From an uncultured Candidatus Saccharibacteria bacterium (GTDB lineage: Bacteria > Patescibacteriota > Minisyncoccia > UBA6257 > Colwellbacteraceae): 33,319 nucleotides of DNA. Shown piece after piece: positions 2,733 through 25,971 of the stretch. A model generated the notes under the pieces. That model worked only from the letters and a program-made list of their open reading frames with translations. It did not search any database and had not been told where the DNA came from. The DNA is taken from assembly GCA_964361435.1 (NCBI GenBank), contig CAYIAN010000001.1, positions 1 to 33,319 on the forward strand, in the 5' to 3' direction. Position 1 is the first letter of the stretch. Each line of letters starts with the position of its first letter. The position numbers and the translations under genes were made by a program.

Positions 2733-3949
2733 TTCCTAAGTAGTTCTTTAACGACTCCTACATCCGACCAGGGGATGCGCTTTCCCTTAGCTATTCTGAT
2801 GTAAGGTTCGCTGCCCTTGCCGGTTACAACCACCACATCCCCCCTTTGAGCTAAATCCAAAGCCGCCCTTATGGCCTGCCGCCTGTCTAAAATCTTTTTC
2901 ACCTTGTGTTTGTCTTTTATCCCTCTTTCTATTTCTTCCAAAATTTGAGTTGGATCTTCATCTACCGGGTCTTCATCCGTAAGAATTATTTCCTCACAGT
3001 ACTTTGCCGCAATCTCACCCATTTTCGGACGCTTCCACCTATCTCTTCCCCCCAAGGGACCAAGTGCTCCCATAGAGCCAAAAACGCCAATCAGATTTCC
3101 CTTAAACATTTTTTTCACGCTAGTGTATACCGCCTCCAACGAATCCGGGGTGTGGGCGTAATCGACAATTACTCCAAACGGTCGCTCTTGCAAAATCTCC
3201 ATCCTTCCTGGAACACCGGCAAATTCTCTAAATGCTTTCTCAATGTCTTTTTCACTAATTTCCAGGAAGCGCAGAATGGCCTCGGCGAGACCCGCGTTTT
3301 GCAGATTGAAATCTCCGGGCATTTTAAGCTCCTTATTGGTCTTGGTAGTCAAAACCACACTCTCGCTATCCACTGCATTAATAAAATAATTGGCATTATC
3401 ATCATCTTGGTTTATAAAAAACCTCACGTCCTTTTTTGAAGAATATCTTTCTACATCTTCAAAAAATTTAAGCTTGGCGTCCCGATAGTTTTCAAATCCT
3501 CCGTGAGATTCAATGTGTTCTGGATGTAAATTCACGAACGCAGCCGCATCGAAATCAATAAATCTATGTCTAGATTGCACAATTCCCTCGGAGACCACCT
3601 CTAGAAGAGCGTACTCGCATCCGACCTTGAGTCCATCCGCCATGAGTTTTTGCAAAAACCCTCTTCCGGGCATCGTATTCCCCGTACTATTTGGTTTACT
3701 CCGATCCCCCACCTTAAATCTTACGGATGAGGCTAGGGTAGTTTTCTTGCCAGCAACTTCCAGTCCTGCATTTATCAACTCTAGTGTGGTCGATTTGCCT
3801 TTGGTGCCAGTTACTCCGATCACTTTCAATTTTTTTGATGGGAATCCAGAAAATAATGCACCGCCAAATGCTAACGCTATATGATACAGACTTAATACTC
3901 CCAAAGGTTTGAGGACTTTAGTTAAGATGTATTTAAGGGTTCTTACCAT
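2729..3949 (-). CDS. murE: Mur ligase family protein, MurE-like (UDP-MurNAc-tripeptide synthetase), lacking the canonical N-terminal domain
   Basis: 406 aa. It has the P-loop VIGVTGTKGKSTT, a MurE-like central block (NTMPGRGFLQKLM...GCEYALLEVVSEGIVQSRH...FVNLHPEHIESHGGFENYRDAKLKFF) and a C-terminal DRRQAIRAALDLAQRGDVVVVTGKGSEPY. The N-terminus is a hydrophobic segment instead of domain 1. Confidence 0.65.
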   Translation of the reverse strand: MVRTLKYILTKVLKPLGVLSLYHIALAFGGALFSGFPSKKLKVIGVTGTKGKSTTLELINAGLEVAGKKTTLASSVRFKVGDRSKPNSTGNTMPGRGFLQKLMADGLKVGCEYALLEVVSEGIVQSRHRFIDFDAAAFVNLHPEHIESHGGFENYRDAKLKFFEDVERYSSKKDVRFFINQDDDNANYFINAVDSESVVLTTKTNKELKMPGDFNLQNAGLAEAILRFLEISEKDIEKAFREFAGVPGRMEILQERPFGVIVDYAHTPDSLEAVYTSVKKMFKGNLIGVFGSMGALGPLGGRDRWKRPKMGEIAAKYCEEIILTDEDPVDEDPTQILEEIERGIKDKHKVKKILDRRQAIRAALDLAQRGDVVVVTGKGSEPYIRIAKGKRIPWSDVGVVKELLRK

Positions 3950-4521
3950 TAATTTTTAATTAAACGCAGCGCTTCTTTAAGGCGATCCCGTACATCCGTA
4001 AGTTTGGGATCAATATCCCTAAGTACTTCCTCTGCTTTTCTTCTTGGGTACCCAAGACTTAGGAGAGCTTCAAAAACATCCTGGTCAGACTCGGCAAGAC
4101 GCACAGCATCCTTTCCCCCAGATGGGGCTACTTTATCTTTAAGCTCCACTATAATGCGCTCCGCTGTTTTCCTTCCCACTCCAGATGAACGTCTCAAGAG
4201 CTCCGGCTCTCCTTTGGCTATCGCCGCAGTAATTTGATCCACCGAGCCCACGCTCAATATGGACATAGCTGACTTGGGGCCCACTCCAGAAACCGAAATA
4301 AGGGCTTCAAAGAGTTGCAGTCCTTCTTCTGCAAAAAAACCAAAAAGATCCATTCCCCCCTCTCTAACGTTTAGATAAGTATAAACGCTGATATTTTGCC
4401 CCTCTCTGGGGAGTCTTTCTTCATTGAGAGAAATATAGACCTTATAGGCCACACCCCCTACGTCTATTACAACATAGTTGAGGCCTAGAGCTTTTACTTT
4501 GCCGGACAATCCATGAATCAT
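3949..4521 (-). CDS. ruvA: Holliday junction branch-migration complex subunit RuvA
   Basis: MIHGLSGKV...VIDVGGVAYKV (OB domain), the HhH region SVSGVGPKSAMSILS / SGVGRKTAERIIVELKDK, and C-terminal domain III. I prefer the internal ATG at 4521 over the track start at 4560 because a TTGAGA-17-TATAAT promoter lies inside the 4522..4560 extension. Confidence 0.85.
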   Translation of the reverse strand: MIHGLSGKVKALGLNYVVIDVGGVAYKVYISLNEERLPREGQNISVYTYLNVREGGMDLFGFFAEEGLQLFEALISVSGVGPKSAMSILSVGSVDQITAAIAKGEPELLRRSSGVGRKTAERIIVELKDKVAPSGGKDAVRLAESDQDVFEALLSLGYPRRKAEEVLRDIDPKLTDVRDRLKEALRLIKN

Positions 4522-4531
4522 AGCTACCTCA

Positions 4532-4560
4532 ATTATATGGGCCCCTATTGGCTTTCTCAA
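4532..4560 (-). promoter_or_regulatory. Sigma70-like promoter for the ruvA-murE-betaCASP operon
   Basis: On the minus strand: TTGAGA (4560..4555), a 17-nt spacer, TATAAT (4537..4532), then 10 nt (tGAGGtagct) to ATG 4521. Confidence 0.5.
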
Positions 4561-5032: not shown

Positions 5033-5887
5033 TTATTTCACGAATGGATTGGAAGCACCTAATACTCCAAAGTGCACGTGACACCCAGTACTTCCGCGAG
5101 TGAACCCAGTGCTCCCCACATTTCCAATGTGTTCACCCTGTGAAACTTGTTCTCCGACCTCAACAATATTTCCCAAATTGTGCGCGTAAAGAGTGCGTGT
5201 GCCGTTGGGGTGACTTATAATAACGTACCCTCCGTACCCACTGTTATAATTGGCGGGATCGCCCACTCGCGTAACCGTCCCTTCAGCTGCTGCGTAAATT
5301 TCTGATCCGCAAGCCTTAGAAAAATCGACTGCGGGCATATACTTTGAATCATGTAAAATCCCCCAGTTTAACCCCCCATCCACCGGACGGATAAAGTATG
5401 CATTCTCCGCTACTGTGCCTATACTCTCTGTATTTTTTGTTATAACCCTGCCACTTTTCGAAACGGGTAATATGGCGAGTTCCTCTCCGGGACGGATCAA
5501 GCTACTACCCTTATCGTTTGCTTCTAAAATATCACCTACTGAGATGCCAAAGGTTGTGGCAATGCTCGATAGGGTATCTCCGTCTTCGACGGTATAAGTT
5601 AGAACATCTTCTTCCCCAACTCTGTCCTTTAAAGAGTCTCCCGTACCAGATAGAGAGCTTTTCTCAACCAACGCGAATCCAGCAAAATCAGCATAGGCAT
5701 CCGTATGGTCAATCTCCTCTACTGGTCCGGCATTACTTAATAAAGCACCGGCTTCTGAGTTTACAAGTAGATCTTCCTCTATTAACCGCGGGTCCGGGGA
5801 AGAGGCTGGAGTAGCCTGCCTAAAAAAGGCCAGATCGGTCATTAAGACTCCTAAAATAAGGATTACCGGTAGGGTCACACCGCGCAA
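5033..5887 (-). CDS. LysM domain-containing M23 family metallopeptidase (start uncertain)
   Basis: LysM: YTVEDGDTLSSIATTFGISVGDILEAN. M23: VISHPNGTRTLYAHN...GEHIGNVGSTGFTRGSTGCHVHFGV. The track ORF extends to 6223 but would overlap the uvrD start by 255 nt. In-frame TTG 5887, GTG 5878 or ATG 5842 lie just before or within the single TM (VTLPVILILGVLM). Confidence 0.8.
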   Translation of the reverse strand: MRGVTLPVILILGVLMTDLAFFRQATPASSPDPRLIEEDLLVNSEAGALLSNAGPVEEIDHTDAYADFAGFALVEKSSLSGTGDSLKDRVGEEDVLTYTVEDGDTLSSIATTFGISVGDILEANDKGSSLIRPGEELAILPVSKSGRVITKNTESIGTVAENAYFIRPVDGGLNWGILHDSKYMPAVDFSKACGSEIYAAAEGTVTRVGDPANYNSGYGGYVIISHPNGTRTLYAHNLGNIVEVGEQVSQGEHIGNVGSTGFTRGSTGCHVHFGVLGASNPFVK

Positions 5888-7711: not shown

Positions 7712-7921
7712 ATGAACCTATCAAATCCTATTTTCATAATCTCTGGATCTAGTGGAACTGGAGAAAGAACTCTCATTAAAACTCTCTTGGAGCGCCACAG
7801 AGAATTTCAGCTCACTACCTCTGCCACCACCAGAGCGCGTCGCCCATCGGATAAACCAAGCGATTACTACTTTCTGACCGAAGAAGAATTCCAATGGCAG
7901 TCGAGGAGTTGGAAAAAATAA
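7712..7921 (+). pseudogene. gmk: Guanylate kinase N-terminal remnant (69 aa, degenerate P-loop)
   Basis: IFIISGSSGTGERTLIKTLL...TTSATTRARRPSDKPSDYYFLTEEEF aligns with the Gmk pattern GPSGxGKsTL...TTRxPRxGExxGxxYxFvs. The Walker Lys is Glu here (GTGERT), and the frame stops after 69 codons. rsmA starts 10 nt later. Confidence 0.6.
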
Positions 7922-7930
7922 TAAGCACCC

Positions 7931-8692
7931 GTGTTGGCTAAGAAATTTCTAGGGCAGAATTTTCTCAAAGACCACAAAGTTCTTGAGCGTATTGCCGAAG
8001 CTTTAGAGATAAAGGAGGGTGATACTGTAGTGGAAATAGGCCCAGGACACGGAGAGCTCACCAGGAGAATCTTAAAATATTCTCCAAGTAAGCTTATGGC
8101 CATAGAAAAAGACGGTGAACTGATTGAATCTTTCTTGGGCGAATTAATTGATCAATACCCAAATTTAGAGGTTGTCCAAGCAGACGCCCTTAAACAAATT
8201 CCCCAGATAGACTATCCATACAAGTTGGTGGGAAATATCCCCTATTACATCACCGGACACCTATTGCGCATTCTTCAAGGACTCTCTCAAAAACCGTCCC
8301 TGATTGTGTTAACTCTTCAAAAAGAGGTGGCTAATAGGCTTTGTGCGGAGCCTCCCAAAATGAATCTTTTAGCTGCCACTATTCAACTTTGGGCGAAGCC
8401 ACAAATCATTAGATACATATCCAAAAAGTCCTTCAGACCGGCGCCCAAGGTAGATTCAGCTGTTGTTAAAATAACCCCTTTCGGCAATCAAAAAGTACAG
8501 GAGATCAGTGATGAATATTACAAAATAGTAAAGGTTCTTTTTAAACAACCCCGCAAGACTATTCTCAATAATCTACGCTCCCTTGGGGCCACCCCAGAAC
8601 AACTAGAAAAGTTTGGGCTGGATCCAAGACTCCGGCCCCAAAATCTATCTATAGAACAAATCAAAGGGCTTGCCCGTCTATTCACACATTAA
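7931..8692 (+). CDS. rsmA: 16S rRNA (adenine1518/1519-N6)-dimethyltransferase RsmA/KsgA
   Basis: GTG start. The protein has KKFLGQNFL, the SAM motif VVEIGPGHGELT, and GNIPYYIT. Confidence 0.9.
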   Translation: MLAKKFLGQNFLKDHKVLERIAEALEIKEGDTVVEIGPGHGELTRRILKYSPSKLMAIEKDGELIESFLGELIDQYPNLEVVQADALKQIPQIDYPYKLVGNIPYYITGHLLRILQGLSQKPSLIVLTLQKEVANRLCAEPPKMNLLAATIQLWAKPQIIRYISKKSFRPAPKVDSAVVKITPFGNQKVQEISDEYYKIVKVLFKQPRKTILNNLRSLGATPEQLEKFGLDPRLRPQNLSIEQIKGLARLFTH

Positions 8693-8707
8693 CCCGTAAA
8701 TAGGGCG

Positions 8708-8713
8708 TATAAT
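8708..8713 (+). promoter_or_regulatory. -10 box (TATAAT) upstream of the VirB6-like gene
   Basis: GCGTATAATT lies 14 nt upstream of ATG 8728. The same 10-mer, GCGTATAATT, precedes the VirB4 gene at 12987..12996. No convincing -35 was seen. Confidence 0.4.
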
Positions 8714-8727
8714 TACATAAATACCCC

Positions 8728-11592
8728 ATGTGGGATTCAAGAAAAAGGAATCTATTCAAAGCCCTAGCGGTGTTGGGTGTTTTTCTCATTGTGGGGGTGG
8801 CAAAAGTTAAGGCTATTGGGATTTTCGCGCTTGGCGGAATCGGTCTCGTGATCTCATCCATTTTTGGCTTAGACCTATTTGGTAATTTTATAGGAGGTTT
8901 GGTAGGCGAGGTCGCCGAAGGAATAGCCGGCTTACTAACCATTGTCATTCAAGTTCTGGGAAATGTTCTCTTCAGTGCCGTAACGGGATTTTTGGAGCTC
9001 TCTATGGAGCTCAATAGCTACATCCAGGACAGTCCTATCGTCCAGGATGGATTCTGGGTTGCGCTGACGGTAGCTAACTTGGGTCTGGTTGTGGGGATAC
9101 TAATCATTGCCATAGCTACTATGGTCAGAGCTGACTGGTTAGTAGAACCAAGAACTTCTATCCCCAAATTCATTGCGGCAGCACTTTTGATAAACTTTGG
9201 ACTTTTTATTGGTACTAACCTGCTCATTAAACCCGTTGATACTATTTCTCGGGTTATTTTTGAGGCGTCTAATATTGGGAGTAATAGTTTTGCGGGGATT
9301 TTCCGACCAAAGTTGGGCATAGACCTCCAGCTTAATGCTCAACTGAATATAGCTGATCTTACTCCAGAAGAGACTCCTTTGGCTGAGGGAATAATAAGTT
9401 ACTTTTTGCTAAGAGAAGATCAGTTAGCTCCAAAAATTGACGCAGAGTTGAGAAGCCGCGAAAAAAAGGAAGCAAATTTTTTTAATACTTCCTATGTGCC
9501 CATTGGGAGAACTCCTGATAATGAAATAATTTATGTTTCTGAGGATGCGCGCCGCGCCGTGAAAGAAGCGATCCTAAGGCATACCGATAAAATGCTTGCC
9601 GCTCATGGTGGGGAAGACCCAGGGGGTCCAGATCCTCTATTTATTGAACCAGGGGTGCTATACTTCGATGAAACATATCTTACCGAGGATGGCTATAAGA
9701 GTTTAATCGAACATGCTCTGGGAGCAGGCGATGCCCCATATAGTTATTACGCCGAGCCTGGCGCCCTAGATGCTCTCGTAACCTCTATTAACAACATTGT
9801 TAAGGGTGAGTTGGGTAAGACCAAAAATTTACCATCAAGCCAAGACCTCACCGGCAATACGGTTTCATCTGATGATACGATCAGTCAAGAAATAGGATTT
9901 GAGTGCACACTCTGGACGGGTACTGATTCTCAAAACTGCAAATATCTATTTAAAGTTGTGGGAAAGGCAATAAAAGAGCCTGAGGGCCTTAAAAAAGCGG
10001 CTGTGGTTCTATCGGAAGTGCTTTTCTATGCCTTGTTTGTTTTCCTCGGCGTATTCACGCTTCTAACGGTAGCTGTTCTCATGTTTATGAGGTACATCGC
10101 GCTCTCGATTTTGCTTATCCTTTTCCCATTTACTTGGTTAGGGTGGATATTCCCCAAAATAAGTGGTTTAGGGAATATATGGAAATCTTGGTGGACTGAA
10201 TTTATGAAATGGCTTTTGTTCGGTCCGATATCCTTATTCTTCGTATACCTCGCCGTTCAAGCTGCCTCATCCAGAGAAAAACTCATTCCCCTTAGTGTAG
10301 ACCGCATCGGAAAAGGGACGCTTGCCACTATCTCCGCGTCTATTGGAGATATGGCTGTGGTAATAGGGCTAATGATTGGAGGTGTAATTGTCGCGAAGAA
10401 AATGGGCGTTAAGGGAGCCGGTTTGTTCTACGGCGGGTTAACTAAGATGCGTAACAAGGTTGGTGCTCTAGCAAAGCGGGGAGCTCTAATGCCATTTAGC
10501 CCAATTGCTAAAAGATACAAATGGGGCAAAGAGAATATAAAAAGTGCTGCACGTGCTGGCTGGGCGGGTTGGAGAACTAGCGGAGATAGAACTAAAGGCG
10601 GTAGAAACCTACTGGATGCACTAGCTTCTTCTTCTAATCCATTAATGGCGGCGTGGGGCAGAAATAGACAAGGAAGGGCAGCTCGCGCAGAAGAGATTTT
10701 GCGAAAACACGACGAACGTAAGTTTATGTACAGAGATGAAGAGGGTAAACTCCAGCACACGCCTGGTGGGCAAAGAAGATCCCAGATGCTAAAGGGATTA
10801 AATGAAAAGGCTCTAAAGGAAAAGGCACGTTATGGGAAGACATCCGTAGGCACTCTAAGAGACATGGCTGCCCTGGCACAATCTTTACACGACGCCGGTT
10901 ATGATTGGGAAGCGCCATTTATGGAGTCAGCAGCAATACTTAGCGAAAATGGATATTACCTAGGGGGTGGTCTCCAGCAAATGGAGAATGAATTGAATGA
11001 AACTGGATTGGCTCCTACGGCCATGCAAGCCATAGCCAGGGGAGCAAGTCACGCCGATATCGTTACAGCTATGGACGATGAGTTTAGTAAGATAGGCACC
11101 CTCAAGACAGATCCTAAACTACTCCAAGATAAACCTCTTTTTGGCATGGATTCATATCAATGGGCATCGTATCAGGCTGCATACCTAGAATATATAACAA
11201 AGCATAGACCATCTGACCTAACAAAAACCGTTAATGCCGCGTCTGCCAACACTAGGATGAAGTTACAGGGCATTGCACAACAAGAGTTAGGGAGGTTTGA
11301 GACAAGCATTATGGGTGGGGGGTTTACTTTGGCTGGGGCTCCTATTCCGCTCGCTGATGTTCCCATTCCGACTACATCGGGTAGCATTCGATGGGGAGAC
11401 GCTGGCCCCCAACAGAAAGTAAAGTTTATGCAGGATGAGATAAATAATGGAACCCTAATGGGGCAACACATACAAAGGCTTATTGGTCAACAAGGAGTTA
11501 ATATGCCTATTAACGCTATATTAGACACGCTGGTAGGGCTTGATAGGGCAGCCCGCGCCGGTCTTGGATCATGGTTTATACCAACCCCATAA
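8728..11592 (+). CDS. Large polytopic membrane protein, VirB6/TrbL-like candidate, with a long C-terminal soluble domain
   Basis: 954 aa. A signal/TM N-terminus and a first TM bundle cover residues ~10-190. A ~230-aa hydrophilic loop with one Cys pair (FECTLWTGTDSQNC) covers ~197-423. A second TM bundle covers ~424-555, followed by a ~400-aa basic/helical tail. The call rests on topology and on position directly upstream of the PrgI and VirB4 genes. No sequence motif was recognised. Confidence 0.45.
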   Translation: MWDSRKRNLFKALAVLGVFLIVGVAKVKAIGIFALGGIGLVISSIFGLDLFGNFIGGLVGEVAEGIAGLLTIVIQVLGNVLFSAVTGFLELSMELNSYIQDSPIVQDGFWVALTVANLGLVVGILIIAIATMVRADWLVEPRTSIPKFIAAALLINFGLFIGTNLLIKPVDTISRVIFEASNIGSNSFAGIFRPKLGIDLQLNAQLNIADLTPEETPLAEGIISYFLLREDQLAPKIDAELRSREKKEANFFNTSYVPIGRTPDNEIIYVSEDARRAVKEAILRHTDKMLAAHGGEDPGGPDPLFIEPGVLYFDETYLTEDGYKSLIEHALGAGDAPYSYYAEPGALDALVTSINNIVKGELGKTKNLPSSQDLTGNTVSSDDTISQEIGFECTLWTGTDSQNCKYLFKVVGKAIKEPEGLKKAAVVLSEVLFYALFVFLGVFTLLTVAVLMFMRYIALSILLILFPFTWLGWIFPKISGLGNIWKSWWTEFMKWLLFGPISLFFVYLAVQAASSREKLIPLSVDRIGKGTLATISASIGDMAVVIGLMIGGVIVAKKMGVKGAGLFYGGLTKMRNKVGALAKRGALMPFSPIAKRYKWGKENIKSAARAGWAGWRTSGDRTKGGRNLLDALASSSNPLMAAWGRNRQGRAARAEEILRKHDERKFMYRDEEGKLQHTPGGQRRSQMLKGLNEKALKEKARYGKTSVGTLRDMAALAQSLHDAGYDWEAPFMESAAILSENGYYLGGGLQQMENELNETGLAPTAMQAIARGASHADIVTAMDDEFSKIGTLKTDPKLLQDKPLFGMDSYQWASYQAAYLEYITKHRPSDLTKTVNAASANTRMKLQGIAQQELGRFETSIMGGGFTLAGAPIPLADVPIPTTSGSIRWGDAGPQQKVKFMQDEINNGTLMGQHIQRLIGQQGVNMPINAILDTLVGLDRAARAGLGSWFIPTP

Positions 11593-11611
11593 ATTATCTT
11601 TGATTAACAAA

Positions 11612-12439
11612 ATGTTCGATAACGAAAAAATAAGTAGGAGAATGGACTCCATGACGGACATTATTAAGGATGCTTTTTTCTCTGAAGATAACCGACAACT
11701 TGTGATTTCTATTTGTGGAGATTACCACCTAAGTGACGAGCGCACTGCTGGTGTCGGGAGAAGTTTGGGATATCTTCTTTTAGGACTTATTTTCCCAAAA
11801 GATCTTCCATCTCAAATAGTCAAAGAAGCTAATATAGATCCCAGAATCGCCGCAGAGATAGCACAGGAGATAGATCACAAAATAATATTGCCTCCCTTAG
11901 CTATAGAATTAAACAAAGTCTACGGCTTCAAATTGGATATTGTAGACGTACCAAGGATGGTTCTCCAAACACAAGTCGAGCGGGTTACTGCCCCGACTAT
12001 CACCGAGGCAGAGCAAGTAACGCAAGTTGAACCTCCCCATCAAGACATTGCAACCGTACCTATTAAGTCCGTACCGGATCAAACTCAAGTAGCCCCTCTT
12101 GTTATGCACAAGCGTGTCTCCTCGGAACCTACCCCCATTCAAACGGGTGGTGGATATCCCAATGGTTTGGTGCGCCCCAGTTTTTATACTCCGGAAACTA
12201 GTAACCCCAATGTGGACGAATCTACTCCCGTAGCACGCCTCGAGATAGGGATTAATACTCCGAACGAAGAACCCCAGACCACTCGCGTGGGGAAAGAAAA
12301 AGCGCAGGTTGTCCACTACAGCGCCCCCGAAGTCGCTCCGGACCCATTCTCCGGGACACCAAAACCAACTTCCAAAGCAGAACCCAAGAAGAACATTAAC
12401 CCAGATAATGTGGTCAACCTAAAAGATTTGCCTCAATAA
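11612..12439 (+). CDS. Hypothetical protein: helical N-domain plus Pro/Thr/Gln/Val-rich disordered tail
   Basis: I chose ATG 11612 (MFDNEKISRR...), since the track extension 11540..11611 overlaps the previous gene. The N-terminal ~130 aa look globular (DAFFSEDNRQLVISICGDYHLSDERTAG...LLLGLIFPKDLPSQIVKEANIDPRIAAEIAQEIDHKI). The rest is low complexity (TAPTITEAEQVTQVEPPHQDIATVPIKSVPDQTQVAP...). The stop shares 1 nt with the next start. Confidence 0.5.
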   Translation: MFDNEKISRRMDSMTDIIKDAFFSEDNRQLVISICGDYHLSDERTAGVGRSLGYLLLGLIFPKDLPSQIVKEANIDPRIAAEIAQEIDHKIILPPLAIELNKVYGFKLDIVDVPRMVLQTQVERVTAPTITEAEQVTQVEPPHQDIATVPIKSVPDQTQVAPLVMHKRVSSEPTPIQTGGGYPNGLVRPSFYTPETSNPNVDESTPVARLEIGINTPNEEPQTTRVGKEKAQVVHYSAPEVAPDPFSGTPKPTSKAEPKKNINPDNVVNLKDLPQ

Positions 12440-12978
12440 TGCAGTTTCAAGTCCCTCAATTTATAGAAACTGAAGATAAGGTAGTTGGTCCCTTGAGCCT
12501 CCGTCAATTTGCATACATTGGAACAACTGTAGGCATATCCGCCATACTTCTTTTCGTATCAGAGTTGTGGTTCTGGGCCATTATGTCCATACCAATAATA
12601 GGAGCTGGTGGGGTATTGGCCTTTGGGAAAGTGAATGGCCGACCAATCTCCATATTCATAAAAGCGCTCTTTCAAAGTATCTGGGCTCCGAGCGTGTATA
12701 TCTTCCGCCCCAAGGAGCAGGCAAAACCCATCCCCCTCGGGAAGATCAAAACCGTTGAGCCCAAACCCCCAAAGGGTTCCTCTTTGCCCAAACCGGATTT
12801 CAAGGGAATTAAAAACCTATGGCAGCAGATCAATACATCCAAAAATGCCATTCCCAAAAGAGAAAAGGCCCTCCCGGCTCGAGCTCAAAGTTTTTCCCAG
12901 TTCAAAGAAAGGTTTGAGGCTGTACGCCAAATCACCGGGGAACGTGAGGTGGCAAGGCGCATAGATTACAGATCATAA
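12439..12978 (+). CDS. PrgI family protein (VirB3-like T4SS inner-membrane component)
   Basis: The N-terminus MQFQVPQFIETEDKVVGPLSLRQFAYIG, followed by two adjacent TM helices, is the hallmark of PrgI-family proteins of Gram-positive conjugation systems. It sits immediately upstream of the VirB4-type ATPase. Confidence 0.7.
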   Translation: MQFQVPQFIETEDKVVGPLSLRQFAYIGTTVGISAILLFVSELWFWAIMSIPIIGAGGVLAFGKVNGRPISIFIKALFQSIWAPSVYIFRPKEQAKPIPLGKIKTVEPKPPKGSSLPKPDFKGIKNLWQQINTSKNAIPKREKALPARAQSFSQFKERFEAVRQITGEREVARRIDYRS

Positions 12979-12988
12979 AGGCTTAGCG

Positions 12989-12994
12989 TATAAT
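12989..12994 (+). promoter_or_regulatory. -10 box (TATAAT) 9 nt upstream of the VirB4 ATG
   Basis: The sequence is GCGTATAATTcatgtaatATG. The spacing implies an essentially leaderless transcript. A weak -35 (ATTACA) lies at 18-nt spacing. Confidence 0.4.
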
Positions 12995-13003
12995 TCATGT
13001 AAT

Positions 13004-15391
13004 ATGGCTGACCCCACTGGAGGACGTACACAAGATCTAATCCCCATAAAAACTATCCGCAATGGGATCGTATATCTCAAGGATGGTTCTTTGCGAAAGG
13101 TTATATTGGTAGATGGGACGAATTTTGACCTGAAATCGGAGGAGGAACAAGAGCTTATAATCAACGGTTACCGGGATCTACTCAATGCATTGGACTTTTC
13201 GCTCCAAATTCATGTTCACTCCAGAAAACTGAACGTGGAGGCATATCTGGAGAATCTCGCTAGCCATTTAGACAATGAGGATAATCCTCTAGTTAGGACT
13301 CAGATTGAAGAATACGTTAAGTTTGTTGATTCTTTCGTGGAAGAAAGCGCCATCGTGGCCAAGAGTTTTTTCGTAGTTGTACCGTATAATCCAACCGGAT
13401 TACCTAGCGCAGAAGATGCTGTCTCCTTCGTAGATAAACTTTTCAGAAAAAATAAGAAGGGCCCTTCTCCGCAACTAAACGAAGAGCTCGTTGGCGAAGA
13501 ACAAACTCACTCTGCTTACATTGAACAACTTCACCAGAGAGTAGAGCAAATTTTATCTAGCCTTCACAAAATCGGCTTAAGAGCCATCCCCTTAGAAGAT
13601 CCGGAACTGCTTGAACTTTTCTTTAACACATATAATCCCACAACTGTTGAAACCCGAGGCAAGGAAGTTGGGCAGAAGGGTGCAAAAGGAGCAGAGGGGG
13701 TAGACGAGCTTATCGCTCCATCGTCCCTGGAAGTTAAGCCGAGCTATTTGAAAATTGGCGAGAAGTATACAAAAACTCTATTTGTTTTTAACTACCCCCG
13801 TTACCTGACGACTGGCTGGCTTGCGCCCATCGTGAATCTTCCCGAAACAATGGACGTTTCTATGTTCATCCACCCCACAGATACTGGAGTCGTATTGCGC
13901 AACCTCCGCAAAAAAGTGGCTCAGATAGAGTCCCAAATTACGGATAACGCCCAAAGGGGGCTGGTACGCGATCCCTCTTTGGAAACCGCGCTAGCTGATG
14001 CAGAAAGTCTGCGCGATGGTCTTCTCCAATCGCAGGAAAGGTTTTTCGATACGGCTATATACATCACAATTTATGCAGATTCCGAGAAAGAGCTTGATCG
14101 TTTGGAAGCAGACATTATTAATACCCTGGATACAAAATTGATTAACGTCCGATCTGCTCAGTTTGAACACTTAAAAGGATTTGATTCGACCATGCCCATA
14201 GCCAAAGATTCTCTCGGCATCCATTCTCCTCTTAACTCAGGACCTGTTTCCTCCGCTTTTCCGTTTGTATCGTCCAGCCTGACCTCGGATGAGGGAGTGA
14301 TGCATGGGATCAATCTTCACAATAATTCTTTAATTATCTTTGACCGCTTCTCCCTGGAAAATGCAAATATGACTATCTTCGCTAAGGCCGGTTCTGGCAA
14401 GTCGTATGCGGCCAAGTTAGATATTCTCCGCAGCCTTATGCTCGGAACGGAAATTATAGTAATTGACCCGGAGGATGAATATATCCGCCTAGCCGAAGAG
14501 GTGGGTGGGGCAGTCTTTAAAATCTCTCTGGATTCGAGCAGCCACATTAATCCCTTTGATATTCCCATTATTCCCGAGGGGGAAAGCCCCAATGAGGTTC
14601 TGAAAAGTCATATAGTTAACTTAACTGGGCTGGTAAAGCTTATGTTGGGAAAAGTTACCCCGGAAGAAGAATCTCTTTTAGACCAAGCCATTACTCAAAC
14701 ATACGCTTCCAGAGACATAATCGCCGGACAAGATTTTTCCAAGAAAACTCCCCCTCTGCTTGAAGACTTGGAGTCGGTGCTCCGTGATACCGACGGCGCC
14801 AAAGGAATGGCTGAACGATTGTATCGGTTTACCAAAGGCAGTTACGCCGGCTTCACTAACCAGCCGACTAATGTAAATATAGAAAATCGCATTATTGTCT
14901 TTTCTATCAGGGATCTGGAAGAAGAGTTGCGCCCCATCGCCATGTATATCATTTTAAACTTCATCTGGAGCCTTATTCGGGCTGAACTAAAGAAACGCAT
15001 GATGGTTATTGATGAGGCTTGGCTGCTGATGAAAAATGAAGACAGTGCCTCTTTTCTGTACGGGTTAGCCAAGCGAGCGCGCAAATACTATCTCGGAATA
15101 ACCACCATCACCCAGGACGTAGAGGATTTCTTGGGATCGCCCTACGGCAGACCCATCATCACCAACTCTTCATTACAGCTTCTCCTTAAACAATCGCCCG
15201 CTGCTATAGACTTGGTGGGCAAGGCATTTGATCTCACTAATGTGGAACGTAGCTATCTCCTGGAGGCGGATGTGGGGCAGGGGCTCTTTATAGCCGGGTT
15301 AAAACGCGTGGCCATTAGGATAGTTCCCTCTTTCTTTGAGAATAAGCTAATTACAACCAATCCCGAAGAGCTCCTAGCGGAGAAAGGCTAG
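13004..15391 (+). CDS. virB4: VirB4/PrgJ/TrsE-type type IV secretion ATPase
   Basis: 795 aa. The N-terminal region is VirB4-like (IPIKTIRNGIVYLKDGSLRKVILVDGTNFDLKSEEEQ). Walker A is AKAGSGKSYAAK (14387..14404) and Walker B is MMVIDEAWLLM (from 14999). Downstream is KRARKYYLGITTITQDVEDF. Confidence 0.85.
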   Translation: MADPTGGRTQDLIPIKTIRNGIVYLKDGSLRKVILVDGTNFDLKSEEEQELIINGYRDLLNALDFSLQIHVHSRKLNVEAYLENLASHLDNEDNPLVRTQIEEYVKFVDSFVEESAIVAKSFFVVVPYNPTGLPSAEDAVSFVDKLFRKNKKGPSPQLNEELVGEEQTHSAYIEQLHQRVEQILSSLHKIGLRAIPLEDPELLELFFNTYNPTTVETRGKEVGQKGAKGAEGVDELIAPSSLEVKPSYLKIGEKYTKTLFVFNYPRYLTTGWLAPIVNLPETMDVSMFIHPTDTGVVLRNLRKKVAQIESQITDNAQRGLVRDPSLETALADAESLRDGLLQSQERFFDTAIYITIYADSEKELDRLEADIINTLDTKLINVRSAQFEHLKGFDSTMPIAKDSLGIHSPLNSGPVSSAFPFVSSSLTSDEGVMHGINLHNNSLIIFDRFSLENANMTIFAKAGSGKSYAAKLDILRSLMLGTEIIVIDPEDEYIRLAEEVGGAVFKISLDSSSHINPFDIPIIPEGESPNEVLKSHIVNLTGLVKLMLGKVTPEEESLLDQAITQTYASRDIIAGQDFSKKTPPLLEDLESVLRDTDGAKGMAERLYRFTKGSYAGFTNQPTNVNIENRIIVFSIRDLEEELRPIAMYIILNFIWSLIRAELKKRMMVIDEAWLLMKNEDSASFLYGLAKRARKYYLGITTITQDVEDFLGSPYGRPIITNSSLQLLLKQSPAAIDLVGKAFDLTNVERSYLLEADVGQGLFIAGLKRVAIRIVPSFFENKLITTNPEELLAEKG

Positions 15392-15392
15392 T

Positions 15393-15866
15393 ATGGGGGA
15401 CGGCGAGAAACCAATATCTATAGGCGAGGCTACTTTCATTGTTCTTTTGGTTTTACCAAGTGACATTTTGGAGATGGTTACTGGTCCTCTTTTGTTTTTG
15501 GGTCCTCTTTTTATATTTTTCGATATGGTTGTATGGTTTGGGGTTACCGTATGGATAACCATGAAGGGGGTTCATGTTCCAAAGTCCCTAGCTAAGTGGG
15601 GGGTGGCCAACCTCATTGAGCTCATCCCCATTGTGGAAATAGCGCCCATTAGAACTATTAACTTAATACTGTTAATACGCAAAGCCAATGCCTCCGCCGG
15701 GACTTCCCCACAAGGGAGCGTTGAGGGGGAAGAAGAGGAGGAGGAAGATGAGGGGGCGAATGATGACTTCGAACTTTGGGAGGAAGAGTTGGGGGTTACC
15801 CCGCCCGATAATGAAAGTGAAGGGGGTGCTGAAGAAAACGAAGAGTCGCTAGAGAGCGTCTCCTAA
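15393..15866 (+). CDS. Small integral membrane protein with a poly-acidic C-terminal tail
   Basis: 157 aa. It starts 1 nt after the VirB4 stop. It has about 3 TM helices, then GSVEGEEEEEEDEGANDDFELWEEELGV...GGAEENEESLESVS. No family was recognised. Confidence 0.55.
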   Translation: MGDGEKPISIGEATFIVLLVLPSDILEMVTGPLLFLGPLFIFFDMVVWFGVTVWITMKGVHVPKSLAKWGVANLIELIPIVEIAPIRTINLILLIRKANASAGTSPQGSVEGEEEEEEDEGANDDFELWEEELGVTPPDNESEGGAEENEESLESVS

Positions 15867-16297
15867 AAGTCGGTGGGTCTCACCACCACGTGCCTTTCTC
15901 TATCTTCTCCGTCGCTTTCCGTCTCGACGTCTGGACGCATAGACAGTTCGGTGTGTACGATTCTGCGTTCATAAGCATTCATTGACGGCAACGGCACCCG
16001 CTCTTTGGTGGCCACCGCCTTCCTCGCAGCCACTCTGGCTAATTTAATAATCAAAGATTCTCTATCTTTTCGATAGTCGTTTATGTCGACTAACACGTGA
16101 TCTCCGCCTTCTTTGCGGGCAATCTGACGGGCTAGGTGAGTTAACGAATCCACTAACTCAGGGATTCTCCCCTGAGAAATGCTTTTGTCTTTTATAGAGA
16201 TCGATATGCGATTTTCCTCTTGGATTATCTCAACTTTTAGTTCATCAAAGCCTATCCAATCAAATATTTCCCTTATTTTCTCCCTGGCTTTTTCCAT
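15863..16297 (-). CDS. jag: Jag/KhpB-like RNA-binding protein (KH + R3H domains)
   Basis: The R3H region is PLPSMNAYERRIVHTELSMRPDVETESDGEDRERHVVVRP. The position immediately downstream of yidC is canonical. Confidence 0.8.
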   Translation of the reverse strand: MEKAREKIREIFDWIGFDELKVEIIQEENRISISIKDKSISQGRIPELVDSLTHLARQIARKEGGDHVLVDINDYRKDRESLIIKLARVAARKAVATKERVPLPSMNAYERRIVHTELSMRPDVETESDGEDRERHVVVRPTDF

Positions 16298-17030
16298 GGC
16301 TGCCTAATAATAGCTTCTTTCCCTCCTCTTTGTTAAGGGAACGGTTCACTATGAGCTGTTGGAAGATGGAAAACACGGTAGTGGTACCCCAATAGAGCCC
16401 TATAGCTGCCGGCAGGTTGAAAAGGATTACGACTGTCAAGATTGGCATAAATGTCACCATATTCTGGCCAACCTTCTCTGCTTTAGAGGGTTGCTCCTTA
16501 CTTTTTCCTTTCTTTTTGGCCAAAGAGAGTTTCCCTTGGACATACTGAGCCAAGGCGGCAAACCCCACTAGCCATATGTTACTCTGCCCCAAATCAATCA
16601 ATCCCAAAAATGTCTGGTTTGGTAACTCTGGCAGGGTAATCGATGGATATAAAAGATTAAGGGCTTCCGCCGAAAACCCATTCATAAAGATTCTATAAAG
16701 AACAATGACGATTGGGATTTGAACAAGTAGGGCTAGGAGGGGAGTTAAGGGATTAACCTTGTGTTCATTGTATAACTCCATTATTTTTTGCGCCTGGGTT
16801 TCTTTATCCTCCTTATGATGTTTTTGAATGCGCTTAATCTCTGGTTGGAGATTTTGGGTTATCCTCTGATGCTTAACCGTTTGGTGGAATAGGGGGAAAA
16901 GCAAAAGGCGCACCCCGAGGGTTAACAAAATGATGGCCATCCCCAGATCTTCAAAAGCAATGTTCTCGTAAAGCCATGCAAGGGCATTAAAAAGAGGTCT
17001 ATATAGCGTTGCCGTGAAAAATGCTTTCAT
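16260..17030 (-). CDS. yidC: Membrane protein insertase YidC (short form)
   Basis: 256 aa. It has GMAIILLTLGVRLLLFPL, QPEIKRIQKHHKEDKETQAQKIMELYNEHKVNPL and PAAIGLYWGTTTVFSIFQQ. The synteny is rnpA-yidC-jag. Confidence 0.85.
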   Translation of the reverse strand: MKAFFTATLYRPLFNALAWLYENIAFEDLGMAIILLTLGVRLLLFPLFHQTVKHQRITQNLQPEIKRIQKHHKEDKETQAQKIMELYNEHKVNPLTPLLALLVQIPIVIVLYRIFMNGFSAEALNLLYPSITLPELPNQTFLGLIDLGQSNIWLVGFAALAQYVQGKLSLAKKKGKSKEQPSKAEKVGQNMVTFMPILTVVILFNLPAAIGLYWGTTTVFSIFQQLIVNRSLNKEEGKKLLLGSHGKSQGENKGNI

Positions 17031-17033
17031 AAG

Positions 17034-17366
17034 TTATTTAAGCGCTTTGAATCCCTTCTCTAATTCTGCGTTAAGCGCATCTTTAATGTCAGAGTTAGCC
17101 TCTATGATATGGCCACCGATTACTACTAGCAAGTCTATCCCCTCGGGAACTTTTTCTAAGTGTTCCCTAAAAAAATCGTAGATTACTCTTTTAATCCAGT
17201 TACGCACAGTTGCTTTGGGACTGGTTTTTTTACTAATCACTACCCCCAGACGTGAATAATCATACTTATTAGGAGCTTTTTTTATAGAAAGTTTATCTCC
17301 CCTAAAGCAAAAATTGCCTCCTTTGGGGAACTCTTTGATCGATAATTTAAGCTTTTTGGAGAGCAC
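17034..17366 (-). CDS. rnpA: Ribonuclease P protein component
   Basis: 110 aa, basic, GTG start. It contains RLGVVISKKTSPKATVRNWIKRVIYDFFRE (RNR-like motif) and lies directly downstream of rpmH. Confidence 0.8.
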   Translation of the reverse strand: MLSKKLKLSIKEFPKGGNFCFRGDKLSIKKAPNKYDYSRLGVVISKKTSPKATVRNWIKRVIYDFFREHLEKVPEGIDLLVVIGGHIIEANSDIKDALNAELEKGFKALK

Positions 17367-17374
17367 TCCTTTAA

Positions 17375-17512
17375 CTAGGTCGTTAACTTCTTTCTCCCTT
17401 TGGAAATGCGGCGACGCAAGACTGCCTTGCCCCCCGAGGTGCTTTTGCGTTTCATAAACCCGTGGGCTTTTGCCCTTCTGCGTTTACTGGGCTGATAGGT
17501 TCTCTTTGGCAT
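17375..17512 (-). CDS. rpmH: 50S ribosomal protein L34
   Basis: Below the ORF-track size cut-off. The reverse complement translates [45 protein letters not shown], a near-consensus L34. Confidence 0.9.
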
Positions 17513-17521
17513 AGCGGCGTT

Positions 17522-17550
17522 ATTATATCCATAAAGTGAGGTTTTGTTAA
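17522..17550 (-). promoter_or_regulatory. Promoter of the rpmH-rnpA-yidC-jag operon
   Basis: On the minus strand: TTAACA (17550..17545), a 17-nt spacer, TATAAT (17527..17522), then 9 nt to ATG 17512. Confidence 0.5.
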
Positions 17551-17601
17551 TGTTTGTCCTCTCTCCACAGTTAATTCACATTAGGTGCTTTGGGGAGATG
17601 T

Positions 17602-17629
17602 TTGACGAGTGACTTTTGTTTAATAAGAT
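17602..17629 (+). promoter_or_regulatory. Candidate dnaA promoter
   Basis: TTGACG (17602..17607), a 16-nt spacer, TAAGAT (17624..17629), then 6 nt to ATG 17636. Confidence 0.4.
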
Positions 17630-17635
17630 TGAGTT

Positions 17636-19027
17636 ATGGAAAACCAGGCTCCTGAGGTCAACGGCCTAGAGCAATTGTGGGGAACAGTGCTCTCGGACAT
17701 TGAGCTTAGAATATCGAAACCGAATTTTTTGACCTGGCTCAAAAACAGTCGCTTAATAGAAAACAGCGAAGGGTCCGCCCTAGTGGCTCTCCCCAATAAC
17801 TTTGCCAAGGAGTGGGTGGAAACGAAATATCATAAATTGATTTTGGGCTCTATGCGCTCCATTAACGGGACAACCAAACACGTTGAGTATGTAGTTGAAG
17901 GAAGTCTTTCTCAAAGAGCGATTAATAAGAGGCGCAGGGAGACCAGAGAATATCAAGATGAAAAACAGCTTGCGTTTCAAGAAATGCGCGTTGACCCGGA
18001 GACCAACCTCAATCCCAAACACACCATGGATTCATTTGTTGTGGGTTCCTTTAACGAGTTGGCCTTCTCGGCTGCGCAGGCGGTGATTGAAAGTATCGGC
18101 ACAAAATACAATCCTCTCTTTATATACGGAGGTGTGGGGCTCGGGAAAACTCACCTTCTCCAAGGTATCGGTAATGAAATCCGTAGTCGTTCGGATAACA
18201 AGGTGGGGGTGAAATATGTATCTTCCGAGAAATTTACTAATGACGTTCTGTGGGCCATCAGAAATCGCCGCGCAGAGGATATAAAAAATACCTACCGCAA
18301 TGTAGACGTTCTTATAATCGACGATATCCAGTTTTTGGGTGGTAAAGAAAAGACCCAAGAAGAGTTTTTCCACACCTTCAACGCCCTTCATGAGAATAAT
18401 AAGCAAATAATTATCTCTTCCGACCGCCCTCCAGCATCCATTCCCACCCTTGAAGAGCGCCTGCGCTCTCGTTTTGAGGGCGGAATGATTGCGGATATAA
18501 GCGCTCCTGAGTTTGAGGCTCGTTTGGCCATTGCTAAAGCCAAGCTTCAAGAAAAAGGCGTTGAGTTGGATGATAAAGTCGTTGAGTTGGTGGCCAAAAG
18601 AGTCCAAAAGAACATCCGCGAGATTGAAGGGATTCTCAACAAGCTCGTTTTTCACCAAATAACGTATAAACGAGCCCTAGATACGGCGACCACCGAAAAA
18701 ATTATCTCCGAAGTAACTAATAAATCAGCTTCCAGAGCCACGCCTAACCAAATCATTAAAGCCGTGGCCGCATTCTTTGAAATTTCTCCTAATGATTTAG
18801 TTGGCCGCTCTCGAAACAAAGAGTATGTTGAGCCTCGTCAGATTTCTATGTATCTACTGCGAGAGCTTCTTAGTATGTCTTATCCCGATATCGCAAGTAG
18901 GGTTGGGAAAAGAGACCACACTACTGCTATCTATGCGTGTAAGAAGGTCGCCGTGAGTGTTAGTAACAACCCCGACTTAAGCCAAAAGCTTGTTTTGATC
19001 AAAGAGGATGTTAATAAATTTGGGTAA
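17636..19027 (+). CDS. dnaA: Chromosomal replication initiator protein DnaA
   Basis: 463 aa. The AAA+ Walker A is GGVGLGKTHLLQ, Walker B is LIIDDIQFL, the sensor/box VII region is present, and the C-terminal DNA-binding domain reads RQISMYLLRELLSMSYPDIASRVGKRDHTTAIYACKKV. Confidence 0.95.
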   Translation: MENQAPEVNGLEQLWGTVLSDIELRISKPNFLTWLKNSRLIENSEGSALVALPNNFAKEWVETKYHKLILGSMRSINGTTKHVEYVVEGSLSQRAINKRRRETREYQDEKQLAFQEMRVDPETNLNPKHTMDSFVVGSFNELAFSAAQAVIESIGTKYNPLFIYGGVGLGKTHLLQGIGNEIRSRSDNKVGVKYVSSEKFTNDVLWAIRNRRAEDIKNTYRNVDVLIIDDIQFLGGKEKTQEEFFHTFNALHENNKQIIISSDRPPASIPTLEERLRSRFEGGMIADISAPEFEARLAIAKAKLQEKGVELDDKVVELVAKRVQKNIREIEGILNKLVFHQITYKRALDTATTEKIISEVTNKSASRATPNQIIKAVAAFFEISPNDLVGRSRNKEYVEPRQISMYLLRELLSMSYPDIASRVGKRDHTTAIYACKKVAVSVSNNPDLSQKLVLIKEDVNKFG

Positions 19028-23003: not shown

Positions 23004-23031
23004 AGTATATTCGAGAAAAGCGGGGTGTCAA
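23004..23031 (-). promoter_or_regulatory. Strong sigma70-like promoter for the acidic small-ORF unit
   Basis: On the minus strand: TTGACA (23031..23026), a 16-nt spacer, TATACT (23009..23004). It overlaps the ruvC stop codon. The ~70-nt leader contains the hairpin GGGCUUUGC-N8-GCAAAGUCCC. Confidence 0.55.
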
Positions 23032-23504
23032 GCCCTTTTTGACGAGATATCAAAAGCTCCCCTTAAGGCAATAGCCAAGGCGTCGGAAACATCATCGGGG
23101 CCAGGGATATCTTTAACCTCCAAAGTCCAGGCGACCGCTCGGGAAACCTCTTGTTTACTAGCGCTTCCATTGCCCGTAACGGCGGATTTTACCTCACTGG
23201 GGCCAAACTCCATGAGCTCCAATTTGTTTTTTTGCAAAACCAAAAGGATCACTCCTCTCGCTTCGGACACGCTGGAGGCGGTCTTTTTGTTTTTTGAGAA
23301 AAAAAGTTTTTCTAGGCAAACAAGGTCAGGTTTATGAACACGCACCAATTTTTGCATTTGCCTCTCAAGGTGTGAGAGGCGATCTTCTTTTTCTATTCCT
23401 TCACCGTTAATAAGTCCACAGGCGATCAACCTTACTCCACGGGTTTTTTCTATTAACCCATATCCAGTACGAGTAGTGCCCGGATCTATGCCTAAAATTT
23501 TCAT
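23028..23504 (-). CDS. ruvC: Crossover junction endodeoxyribonuclease RuvC
   Basis: MKILGIDPGTTRTGYGLIE (catalytic Asp), SPSEVKSAVTGNGSASKQEV and DDVSDALAIAL. Confidence 0.9.
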   Translation of the reverse strand: MKILGIDPGTTRTGYGLIEKTRGVRLIACGLINGEGIEKEDRLSHLERQMQKLVRVHKPDLVCLEKLFFSKNKKTASSVSEARGVILLVLQKNKLELMEFGPSEVKSAVTGNGSASKQEVSRAVAWTLEVKDIPGPDDVSDALAIALRGAFDISSKRA

Positions 23505-25918: not shown

Positions 25919-25971
25919 GCAAACTCTATCGTGAGCCACCCTAACACAAACAGAAGACATTGTCAATAGTC

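Follow-up and report, generated by a model that had tools for sequence, protein, structure and literature searches.

A compact type IV secretion-like gene block without a pilin gene at a conserved origin-proximal site in a Colwellbacteria-like genome

Introduction

Genes of type IV secretion systems (T4SSs) were surveyed across the Patescibacteria by Quinonero-Coronel et al. (2025; PMC12102498), who described a VirB4 clade related to MPF-FATA, with PrgI/VirB3, VirB6, TrsD and VirB2-like pilins encoded near virB4 and with most of the clusters devoid of a relaxase. The VirB2-like pilin (PF18895/PF04956) was frequent near virB4, but not universal; the neighbouring genes in Paceibacteria and Microgenomatia were dnaA, dnaN, rnpA, ksgA and rpmH, and both a gene-dosage effect and the import of DNA or other macromolecules were proposed. 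For Parcubacteria RAAC4_OD1_1, Table S3 of that survey lists VirB6, a gap, VirB3, TrsD, VirB4, a gap and VirB2 in this order, and the Colwellbacteria are assigned there to the GTDB class Paceibacteria. Here, a block of five genes of this kind is described, located at positions 8728–15866 of a 33,319-nucleotide (nt) stretch of contig CAYIAN010000001.1 (assembly GCA_964361435.1). The whole stretch is referred to as the window, and the genes are labelled g1 to g5 in the 5' to 3' direction.

The closest functional information comes from Southlakia epibionticum, in which the T4SS genes SEML1_0006-0019 were found by transposon sequencing (Tn-seq) to be essential in co-culture, and coupling and relaxase proteins were noted as lacking (Wang et al., 2023; PMC10633639). 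In this organism comEC was dispensable, whereas the T4SS genes were essential for epibiotic growth (PMC10633639, PMC12857230). Effector delivery or ComB-like uptake were cited as ideas in a 2024 perspective (PMC11665869). The patescibacterial T4SS is the only T4SS reported to be essential for the growth of its own carrier.

Patescibacterial T4SSs of this kind were already described in 2023–2025, and the proximity to the origin, the absence of a relaxase, the precedent of ComB and the speculation on import or effectors have all been published (PMC12102498, PMC10633639, PMC11665869). The window therefore adds no new kind of system. Its copy is unusually stripped-down and has no pilin gene; the modest addition made here consists of this compact variant, in which the pilin is missing and VirB4 is fused, and of two conserved families left unannotated so far.

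Results

A VirB4-type ATPase and its PrgI/VirB3 partner

The evidence presented below makes it likely that the block is a relaxase-free T4SS core of the Patescibacteria type, in a compact version of five genes that characterizes a Colwellbacteria-like lineage of Paceibacteria. The comparisons were made with 80 related loci, to which labels such as L001 refer, obtained by scanning GTDB species with a single genome for each.

Two members of the block had been recognized in a sequence-only reading of the window, a VirB4-type ATPase with Walker A and B motifs (g4) and a PrgI-family protein (g3), and both identities were borne out by profile searches. The g4 product scored 404 bits against the NCBIfam model conju_CD1110 (NF045971, VirB4-like conjugal transfer ATPase, CD1110 family), whose cut-off is 325, and matched P-loop_TraG, TraC_F_IV and AAA_10 in Pfam. 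The Walker A (GSGKS, residues 463–467, nt 14390–14404) and Walker B (VIDEAW, residues 668–673, nt 15005–15022) motifs are intact, and their residues were invariant in an alignment of 17 homologues. Among solved structures, the nearest were 4ag5 (E 4.5e-41), a VirB4 C-terminal domain, and R388 TrwK (E 1e-4). Of the curated models, the Firmicutes-type CD1110 family scored best. The named close homologues all belonged to Colwellbacteria, Parcubacteria or Patescibacteria, and the nearest plasmid relatives were CD1110-family VirB4 proteins of Firmicutes with 26–35% identity. These results indicated that g4 encodes a VirB4 ATPase with intact Walker motifs. Additionally, residues 10–126 gave a weak match to TrsD (NF041427, E 1.6e-4), and g4 joins a TrsD-like N-terminal domain and the P-loop core in one open reading frame (ORF).

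The g3 product reached 32.3 bits against the Pfam family PrgI (PF12666; gathering score 27) over residues 5–80, and the PrgI-family signature quoted in the earlier reading corresponds to its residues 4–24. The protein carries two transmembrane (TM) segments, and a PDB sequence search with it returned no match. It is a PrgI/VirB3-type membrane partner of VirB4.

An extended VirB6-like protein encoded by g1

The first gene had been read as VirB6-like, and this was supported through its orthologues. On its own, the g1 product reached no Pfam or NCBIfam threshold; the Pfam search with it and its 11 closest homologues gave no match, and its alignment profile retrieved only noise from the PDB sequences. 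The TrbL family (PF04610) was matched by nine of the 50 proteins of the g1 locus family, which were more distant locus orthologues (best E 6.7e-10). The L034 orthologue passed the gathering score of this family (29 bits against 25.9, residues 106–333) and could be aligned to g1 over both membrane blocks (E 1e-26 and 1e-10), and the nearest g1 orthologue gave a weak TrbL_3 match.

The hydropathy of g1 delineated a signal-like N-terminus, two TM cores (approximately residues 60–187, and 431–570) and a hydrophilic C-terminal tail of about 385 amino acids (aa). In the alignment, an insertion of about 240 aa (residues 188–430, nt 9289–10017) falls inside the TrbL domain. Because of this insertion and the long tail, the protein can be classed as a putative "extended VirB6". 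When compared with L081, the closest relative, the TM cores were 75–83% identical and the insertion only 47%. The only two Cys residues of g1 are both located in the insertion, which, given these Cys residues and its faster evolution than the TM cores, probably faces outward.

Two families tied to the locus, g2 and g5

The sequence-only reading had left three of the five proteins without a recognizable family. This no longer applies to g1, which is VirB6-like through its orthologues, and still describes g2 and g5 in the sense that neither belongs to a curated family. Both were nevertheless found to represent locus-specific families.

The g2 product has no TM segment. It was matched (E 9.4e-29) by a hidden Markov model (HMM) of the proteins encoded between VirB6 and PrgI in related loci (c8; such c-numbers are cluster labels for unannotated neighbour families), and in 47 of 57 loci a member of its family separates PrgI from the VirB6-like gene. 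The protein starts with a six-helix bundle of about 95 aa, for which the AlphaFold2 (AF2) confidence score (pLDDT) averaged 73–92 over residues 1–90, being low elsewhere. The remainder is disordered and Pro-rich, with the conserved motifs PFVxHEH, GGLVRPSFY, ARLEIG and TTRVGKExAxVVHYSAPE..DPF, and ends in an invariant NVVNLKDLPQ; in other Paceibacteria the C-terminus is DPYREP. No match to g2 was found in Pfam, NCBIfam, PDB or Foldseek (best Foldseek E 3.3).

The g5 product contains approximately three hydrophobic segments. Its C-terminal tail is acidic, the final 57 residues including 23 D/E but not a single K/R, and this tail is common to the nearest relatives only. It was matched (E 1.2e-12) by an HMM of the small proteins encoded just downstream of VirB4 in relatives, a family that follows VirB4 in 30 of 61 loci, and phmmer detected g5 in 32 representative clusters among 1.84 billion proteins; no curated family was found for it. 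The possibility of g5 being a divergent pilin or a second VirB3 was rejected when the g5 family was compared by hhalign with the T4SS_pilin, PrgI and c4 families (probability < 1%). By these profile matches, g2 and g5 are not orphans, their families being tied to this locus in Paceibacteria.

The compact form compared with the usual Paceibacteria locus

In the usual locus, rsmA is followed by a c16-like gene and c10 (one TM segment each), the VirB6-like gene, the g2 family and PrgI, and these by a TrsD-like gene (~215 aa), the VirB4 core (~605 aa), the g5 family, c4, the T4SS pilin and c5, up to jag. The pilin family at the related loci matched PF18895 (E 2.3e-11). The pilin was present in 52 of 61 related loci, c4 in 45 and c5 in 50 of the same number, and upstream of the core c10 was found in 34/45 and the c16-like gene in 30/45. 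The description of the block as minimal was correct in a comparative sense, since relatives mostly carry 8–12 genes in this interval instead of five.

The HMMs of the pilin, c4, c5, c10 and c16-like families gave no match in the six-frame translation of the window. The same five genes, again without a pilin, were found in four other genomes, with VirB4 identities to the window of 89% (L081/L082), 77% (L083), 72% (L084) and 71% (L085, a Colwellbacteria assembly). The pilin HMM, built from 78 locus neighbours, did not match in L081–L085, and no pilin was located within 8–10 kb of those loci. Compact loci at a somewhat greater distance showed different arrangements, L086 having both a g5 homologue and a pilin, and L087, L001 and L019 a pilin in the place of g5; L088 (58%) has a larger locus. 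The lineage has lost from the locus the pilin and four usual neighbour families (c4, c5, c10 and c16/c31/c34).

A further difference concerned TrsD and VirB4, which are encoded by two genes (~215 aa and ~605 aa) in most Paceibacteria (most of L002–L080), overlapping by 8 nt in L032 (9974–12344) or lying 28 nt apart in L043 (9983–12410). In the window and its compact-locus relatives they form a single fused TrsD-VirB4 ORF of ~770–800 aa.

Regarding the neighbour families themselves, c16/c31/c34 (~300 aa), c10 (~500–600 aa), c4 (~230–330 aa) and c5 (~400 aa) all flank the T4SS core in most Paceibacteria; c4 gave faint immunoglobulin-like matches and c5 weak beta-propeller-like matches. Each of these families has one hydrophobic segment, N-terminal in the members inspected, and Pfam returned no significant family for representatives of c4, c5, c10, c16 and c31. 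Examples can be seen in L032 (4264–6510 and 12707–15559) and L010 (3400–5906). Two Saccharimonadia loci, L069 and L070, carry five tandem T4SS_pilin-family genes on the opposite strand just upstream of the VirB6-like gene, in agreement with the pilin arrays reported for Saccharibacteria; their PrgI is 355 aa long, twice the usual length, and dnaN and dnaA lie within 10 kb.

A fixed chromosomal address

The block had been placed between rsmA and the jag-yidC-rnpA-rpmH-dnaA genes, and its position was confirmed. LysM-M23 (on the minus strand), uvrD and rsmA precede g1 in this order; dnaA is followed by dnaN, a class A penicillin-binding protein, ruvC, yebC, pilB and ruvB, and the remaining genes of the window are housekeeping genes. 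As also anticipated, no DNA-processing or coupling gene was found: in the 33-kb window, the Pfam annotation of the large ORFs revealed no relaxase, type IV coupling protein (T4CP), VirB11, integrase or pilin. A search for tRNA genes was likewise negative, and the GC content of the window is even.

Among the 80 related loci, tblastn placed a match to g3 (PrgI) immediately before that to VirB4 in 75; rsmA was upstream in 38, yidC downstream in 49 and dnaA downstream in 46. When only loci with both flanks on the fetched DNA were counted, the T4SS block stood between rsmA and jag/yidC in all 30 of them, the window and 29 other species representatives, with an interval from rsmA to jag/yidC of 6.5–15.5 kb. 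Since this two-sided synteny recurs in 30 loci, the address is an ancestral trait of a broad range of Paceibacteria, among them Jorgensen-, Kaiser-, Nomura-, Harrison-, Giovannoni- and Wolfebacteria. In the closest genomes, the five-gene order itself recurs beside the origin. The claim that the block is chromosomally fixed and domesticated, and not mobile, was supported by the same site being used in dozens of Paceibacteria species. The module is vertically inherited, and its recurrent site speaks for a domesticated apparatus.

The nearest cell-wall hydrolase gene, LysM-M23, and the PilB gene lie at the coordinates given previously. The description of both as unlinked is debatable in the case of LysM-M23, located 2.8 kb upstream of the block, because its position upstream of uvrD-rsmA is retained in many relatives. 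VirB1-type matches with M23/LysM domains were reported to be virB4-associated in Paceibacteria (PMC12102498). LysM-M23 may be a candidate cell-wall hydrolase partner of the T4SS, and might equally be a general cell-wall enzyme.

As for the origin, the minimum of the cumulative GC skew was at ~6–8 kb, about 10 kb from the rpmH-dnaA spacer (17.5 kb). The gene strand bias switches in this same region, so the skew alone has no power to place oriC.

Gene arrangement, conservation and expression

The ORF listing and sequence inspection confirmed five co-directional, tightly packed ORFs on the plus strand, with the spacing given in Table 1. Both junctions that had been described as coupled were present, TAATG at 12437–12441 between g2 and g3 and TAG-t-ATG at 15389–15395 between g4 and g5, and translational coupling is probable at the two of them. 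The g2 ORF extends back to a TTG at 11540; the first plausible ATG, at 11612, was preferred as the start from the alignment with homologues. An AGGAG is found at 11636–11640, within the g2 start region.

Table 1. Position of the five genes, the promoter-like elements and the flanking features in the window.
Feature	Position (nt)	Strand	Remarks
g1, putative extended VirB6/TrbL-like polytopic membrane protein	8728–11592	+	954 aa; 19-nt gap to g2
g2, soluble protein, locus-specific family	11612–12439	+	275 aa; 1-nt overlap with g3
g3, PrgI/VirB3-family protein	12439–12978	+	179 aa; 25-nt gap to g4
g4, VirB4 ATPase	13004–15391	+	795 aa; 1-nt gap to g5
g5, small membrane protein	15393–15866	+	157 aa; stop overlaps convergent jag
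-10-like element GCGTATAATT	8705–8714	+	end of TATAAT 14 nt upstream of the g1 start codon
-10-like element GCGTATAATT	12986–12995	+	end of TATAAT 9 nt upstream of the g4 start codon
rsmA/ksgA, conserved upstream boundary	7931–8692	+	Pfam RrnaAD, E 4.7e-50
jag-yidC-rnpA-rpmH-dnaA, conserved downstream boundary	15863–19027		jag, yidC, rnpA, rpmH on minus strand; dnaA on plus strand
jag	15863–16297	-	
rpmH	17375–17512	-	
dnaA	17636–19027	+	
LysM-M23 peptidase	5033–5887	-	Pfam LysM and Peptidase_M23
PilB	24102–25784		

The comparison of the window with L081 showed saturated synonymous sites for most genes and all five ORFs intact. Due to this saturation the dN/dS ratio (nonsynonymous to synonymous divergence) was unusable, and the integrity of the ORFs and the low dN were used instead. 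The identities between both genomes were 89% for VirB4, 76% for PrgI, 63% for g1, 61% for g2 and 56% for g5, DnaA (91%) and RnpA (46%) serving as comparison. All five ORFs are also intact across the five genomes with the compact form, and their integrity despite saturated dS points to a maintained function. The block is under strong purifying selection and appears to be still functional.

An identical 10-mer, GCGTATAATT, had been pointed out before both large genes. This was correct, except that the second copy begins at 12986 and not at 12987. These two copies are the only ones in the window, 0.10 being expected from shuffles, and both elements are identical in L081 despite a different surrounding spacer. 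In L083–L085, TATAAT is retained 7–15 nt upstream of the g1 and g4 start codons, and before g4 also in L087. A consensus scan of the region for promoters and terminators was not enriched over shuffles, and so the promoter argument rests on conservation. No Shine-Dalgarno-like sequence was evident by eye between the TATAAT boxes and the starts of g1 and g4 (8708–8727 and 12989–13003), which suggests that the g1 and g4 mRNAs are leaderless or near-leaderless. Transcription probably starts from the two conserved TATAAT elements, and the proximity to the origin may add a gene-dosage boost.

Discussion

Comparison with described systems

The likeness to the Patescibacteria-clade T4SS extends to the adjacent PrgI/VirB3, the VirB6 homologue, the TrsD-like sequence, the VirB4 with Patescibacteria homologues, the absence of a relaxase or T4CP nearby and the position by dnaA, dnaN, rnpA, ksgA and rpmH. 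The gene order given for Parcubacteria RAAC4_OD1_1 in Table S3 agrees with that of the window, and the positions of g2 and g5 are left unannotated in it (PMC12102498). The window differs in lacking the VirB2-like pilin gene and four further families, and in having TrsD and VirB4 in one ORF. In the pGO1/pSK41 systems, the N-terminal domain and the core of VirB4 are split into TrsD and TrsE, as in most Paceibacteria relatives, whereas they are fused in the window.

With the MPF-FATA systems (PrgH-PrgI-PrgJ of pCF10; Clostridioides CTn2), the block shares the order VirB6-like, VirB3-like and VirB4 on one strand, the CD1110 equivalog cut-off that g4 surpasses, and a monoderm architecture without VirB7/9/10. 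In contrast to them, neither a relaxase nor a T4CP is found at the sequence level in the window, nor an adhesin, a PrgK-type hydrolase or a PrgL/VirB8-like protein, and the block occupies one fixed chromosomal site across species and not a mobile element. The correspondence with PrgH-PrgI-PrgJ drawn in the sequence-only reading holds for the order of the three recognizable genes, but this order is interrupted by the conserved soluble gene g2, extra between VirB6 and VirB3.

The ComB system of Helicobacter pylori, named as a precedent in the sequence-only reading and in the literature, is also a chromosomal T4SS that has no relaxase and centres on a VirB4 homologue; the analogy is functional only. 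ComB belongs to a diderm, includes ComB7/8/9/10 and works with ComEC, and the homology is limited to the VirB3/4/6-type parts; neither ComB7/8/9/10 nor ComEC genes were found in the 33-kb window. The archaeal Ced system (CedA/CedB), which imports DNA, is likewise relaxase-free and has a VirB4/HerA-like ATPase. Membership in Ced was rejected, the CedB and CedD models giving on g4 44.9 bits (cut-off 700) and 20.6 bits (cut-off 600), respectively.

Weighing of the explanations

In the mechanism envisaged for a relaxase-free T4SS core, a VirB4 hexamer would dock on PrgI and the VirB6-like channel to give a cytoplasmic-membrane translocon, by analogy with T4SS architecture. The Cys-bearing, fast-evolving insertion of g1 would point outward to the host cell, and g2 could be either a cytoplasmic adaptor of the machine or its dedicated, transported substrate. 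Such a machine would move macromolecules between symbiont and host at contact, and would not carry out DNA conjugation. As to the direction of transport, no option reaches even odds in our estimate: the export of proteins or effectors is tentatively rated slightly above an import from the host, of DNA, nucleotides or other macromolecules, and the remainder of our expectation corresponds to another or a structural role.

Several points weigh against this interpretation. We know of no working T4SS made up of a set of five proteins. The VirB6/TrbL identity of g1 would be a matter of transitive homology, as it rests on orthologues. When g1 was modelled by AF2 on an alignment of 12 sequences, the result was poor (pLDDT 62.5; predicted template modelling score, pTM, 0.38), and Foldseek found no PDB match to the model with E < 0.4, which makes it unusable for or against a VirB6 fold. 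By sequence search, the five-gene block contains no pilin, VirB8-like protein or dedicated hydrolase; VirB8-like folds escape sequence searches. A T4CP, a relaxase, pilins or the absent neighbour families may be encoded outside these 33 kb. Most patescibacterial T4CP homologues were found far from virB4 (PMC12102498), the role of the T4SS has been called "completely unknown" (PMC11665869), and the functional T4SS data come only from Saccharimonadia, a different class whose locus has a pilin array.

Alternatively, the block could be what is left of a decayed integrative and conjugative element (ICE), situated near the origin by chance. The characterized CD1110-family members are found on conjugative elements of Firmicutes, and the reduced number of parts with respect to relatives can be read as decay. 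Nevertheless, many Paceibacteria species and candidate phyla share the insertion point between rsmA and jag-yidC-dnaA, the window shows no integrase, relaxase, T4CP or tRNA and a uniform GC content, and the five ORFs remain intact in five genomes despite saturated dS, with VirB4 as conserved as DnaA. The recurrent address together with the uniform GC is not what an ordinary ICE remnant would show; this explanation, largely refuted by synteny, is considered highly improbable. A stronger competitor, although still unlikely in our judgement, is a dedicated DNA-uptake machine like ComB or Ced, in which VirB4 would pull host or environmental DNA in as a source of nucleotides or genes. The block has no relaxase, as in ComB, and Patescibacteria lack nucleotide biosynthesis, a role in uptake having been proposed in PMC11665869 and PMC12102498; weak NCBIfam CedB and CedD matches were also obtained on the ATPase core. 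However, a CedB score so far below its cut-off reflects a generic P-loop only, ComB is a diderm system with VirB7/9/10 that operates together with ComEC, and no recognizable DNA-binding feature was detected in the five proteins by Pfam, NCBIfam or Foldseek. Furthermore, the comEC mutant of S. epibionticum is non-competent yet viable while the T4SS is essential, and therefore the essential role is not classical transformation.

It could also be argued that the compact set no longer secretes and that VirB4, VirB3 and VirB6 persist as a core with a different task at the membrane, for instance the assembly of surface structures or the maintenance of host contact. The loss of the pilin and of c4, c5, c10 and c16/c31/c34 from the locus would fit this idea, and VirB4 is known elsewhere to drive pilus biogenesis as well, and not only substrate transfer. 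This is regarded as improbable, given that the Walker motifs are invariant, that VirB4 is under very strong selection and that the parts still present, VirB6 of the channel type and VirB3 as the anchor, are those of a translocon; the missing genes, moreover, may sit elsewhere in the genome. A different question is whether the five proteins make up a true T4SS by themselves, without a pilin, VirB8-like part or hydrolase and with g2 and g5 as core components, which seems doubtful to us. If this were the case, g2 would represent a novel type of adaptor in the cytoplasm, or else a dedicated substrate, and the set would be the smallest natural T4SS core in a monoderm. The g5 protein would then be a new small membrane subunit standing in for the pilin, as sister genomes carry g5, a pilin, or both after virB4.

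Under the preferred interpretation of a relaxase-free T4SS core, the compact form, kept in at least five genomes, shows which parts are retained: the VirB6-like protein, g2, VirB3, the fused VirB4 and g5. The g2 and g5 families are candidate subunits or substrates, and this narrows the first targets for a structural and genetic study of the machine.

Other features of the window

Between uvrD and rsmA, a 69-aa ORF (7712–7921, plus strand) resembles guanylate kinase, the match being confined to the N-terminal third (positions 5–60 of 182 in the PF00625 profile, E 4.9e-9). It looks like a gene fragment or remnant, and in L081 uvrD adjoins rsmA without this ORF. The uvrD homologue upstream of rsmA in L087 (853–3699) encodes a protein of 948 aa with an intein (PF14890, Intein_splicing).

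The genes ruvA (3949–4560, minus strand), ruvC (23028–23504, minus strand) and ruvB (25960–26970, plus strand) are all located in these origin-proximal 33 kb, in dispersed positions, and other DNA-repair genes are found among them, namely uvrD, fpg (30111–30983) and a 5'-3' exonuclease (27837–28754). The gene directly after ruvB (26970–27449, plus strand) codes for a protein of 159 aa in which a lamin tail domain was recognized (PF00932, E 3.2e-13).

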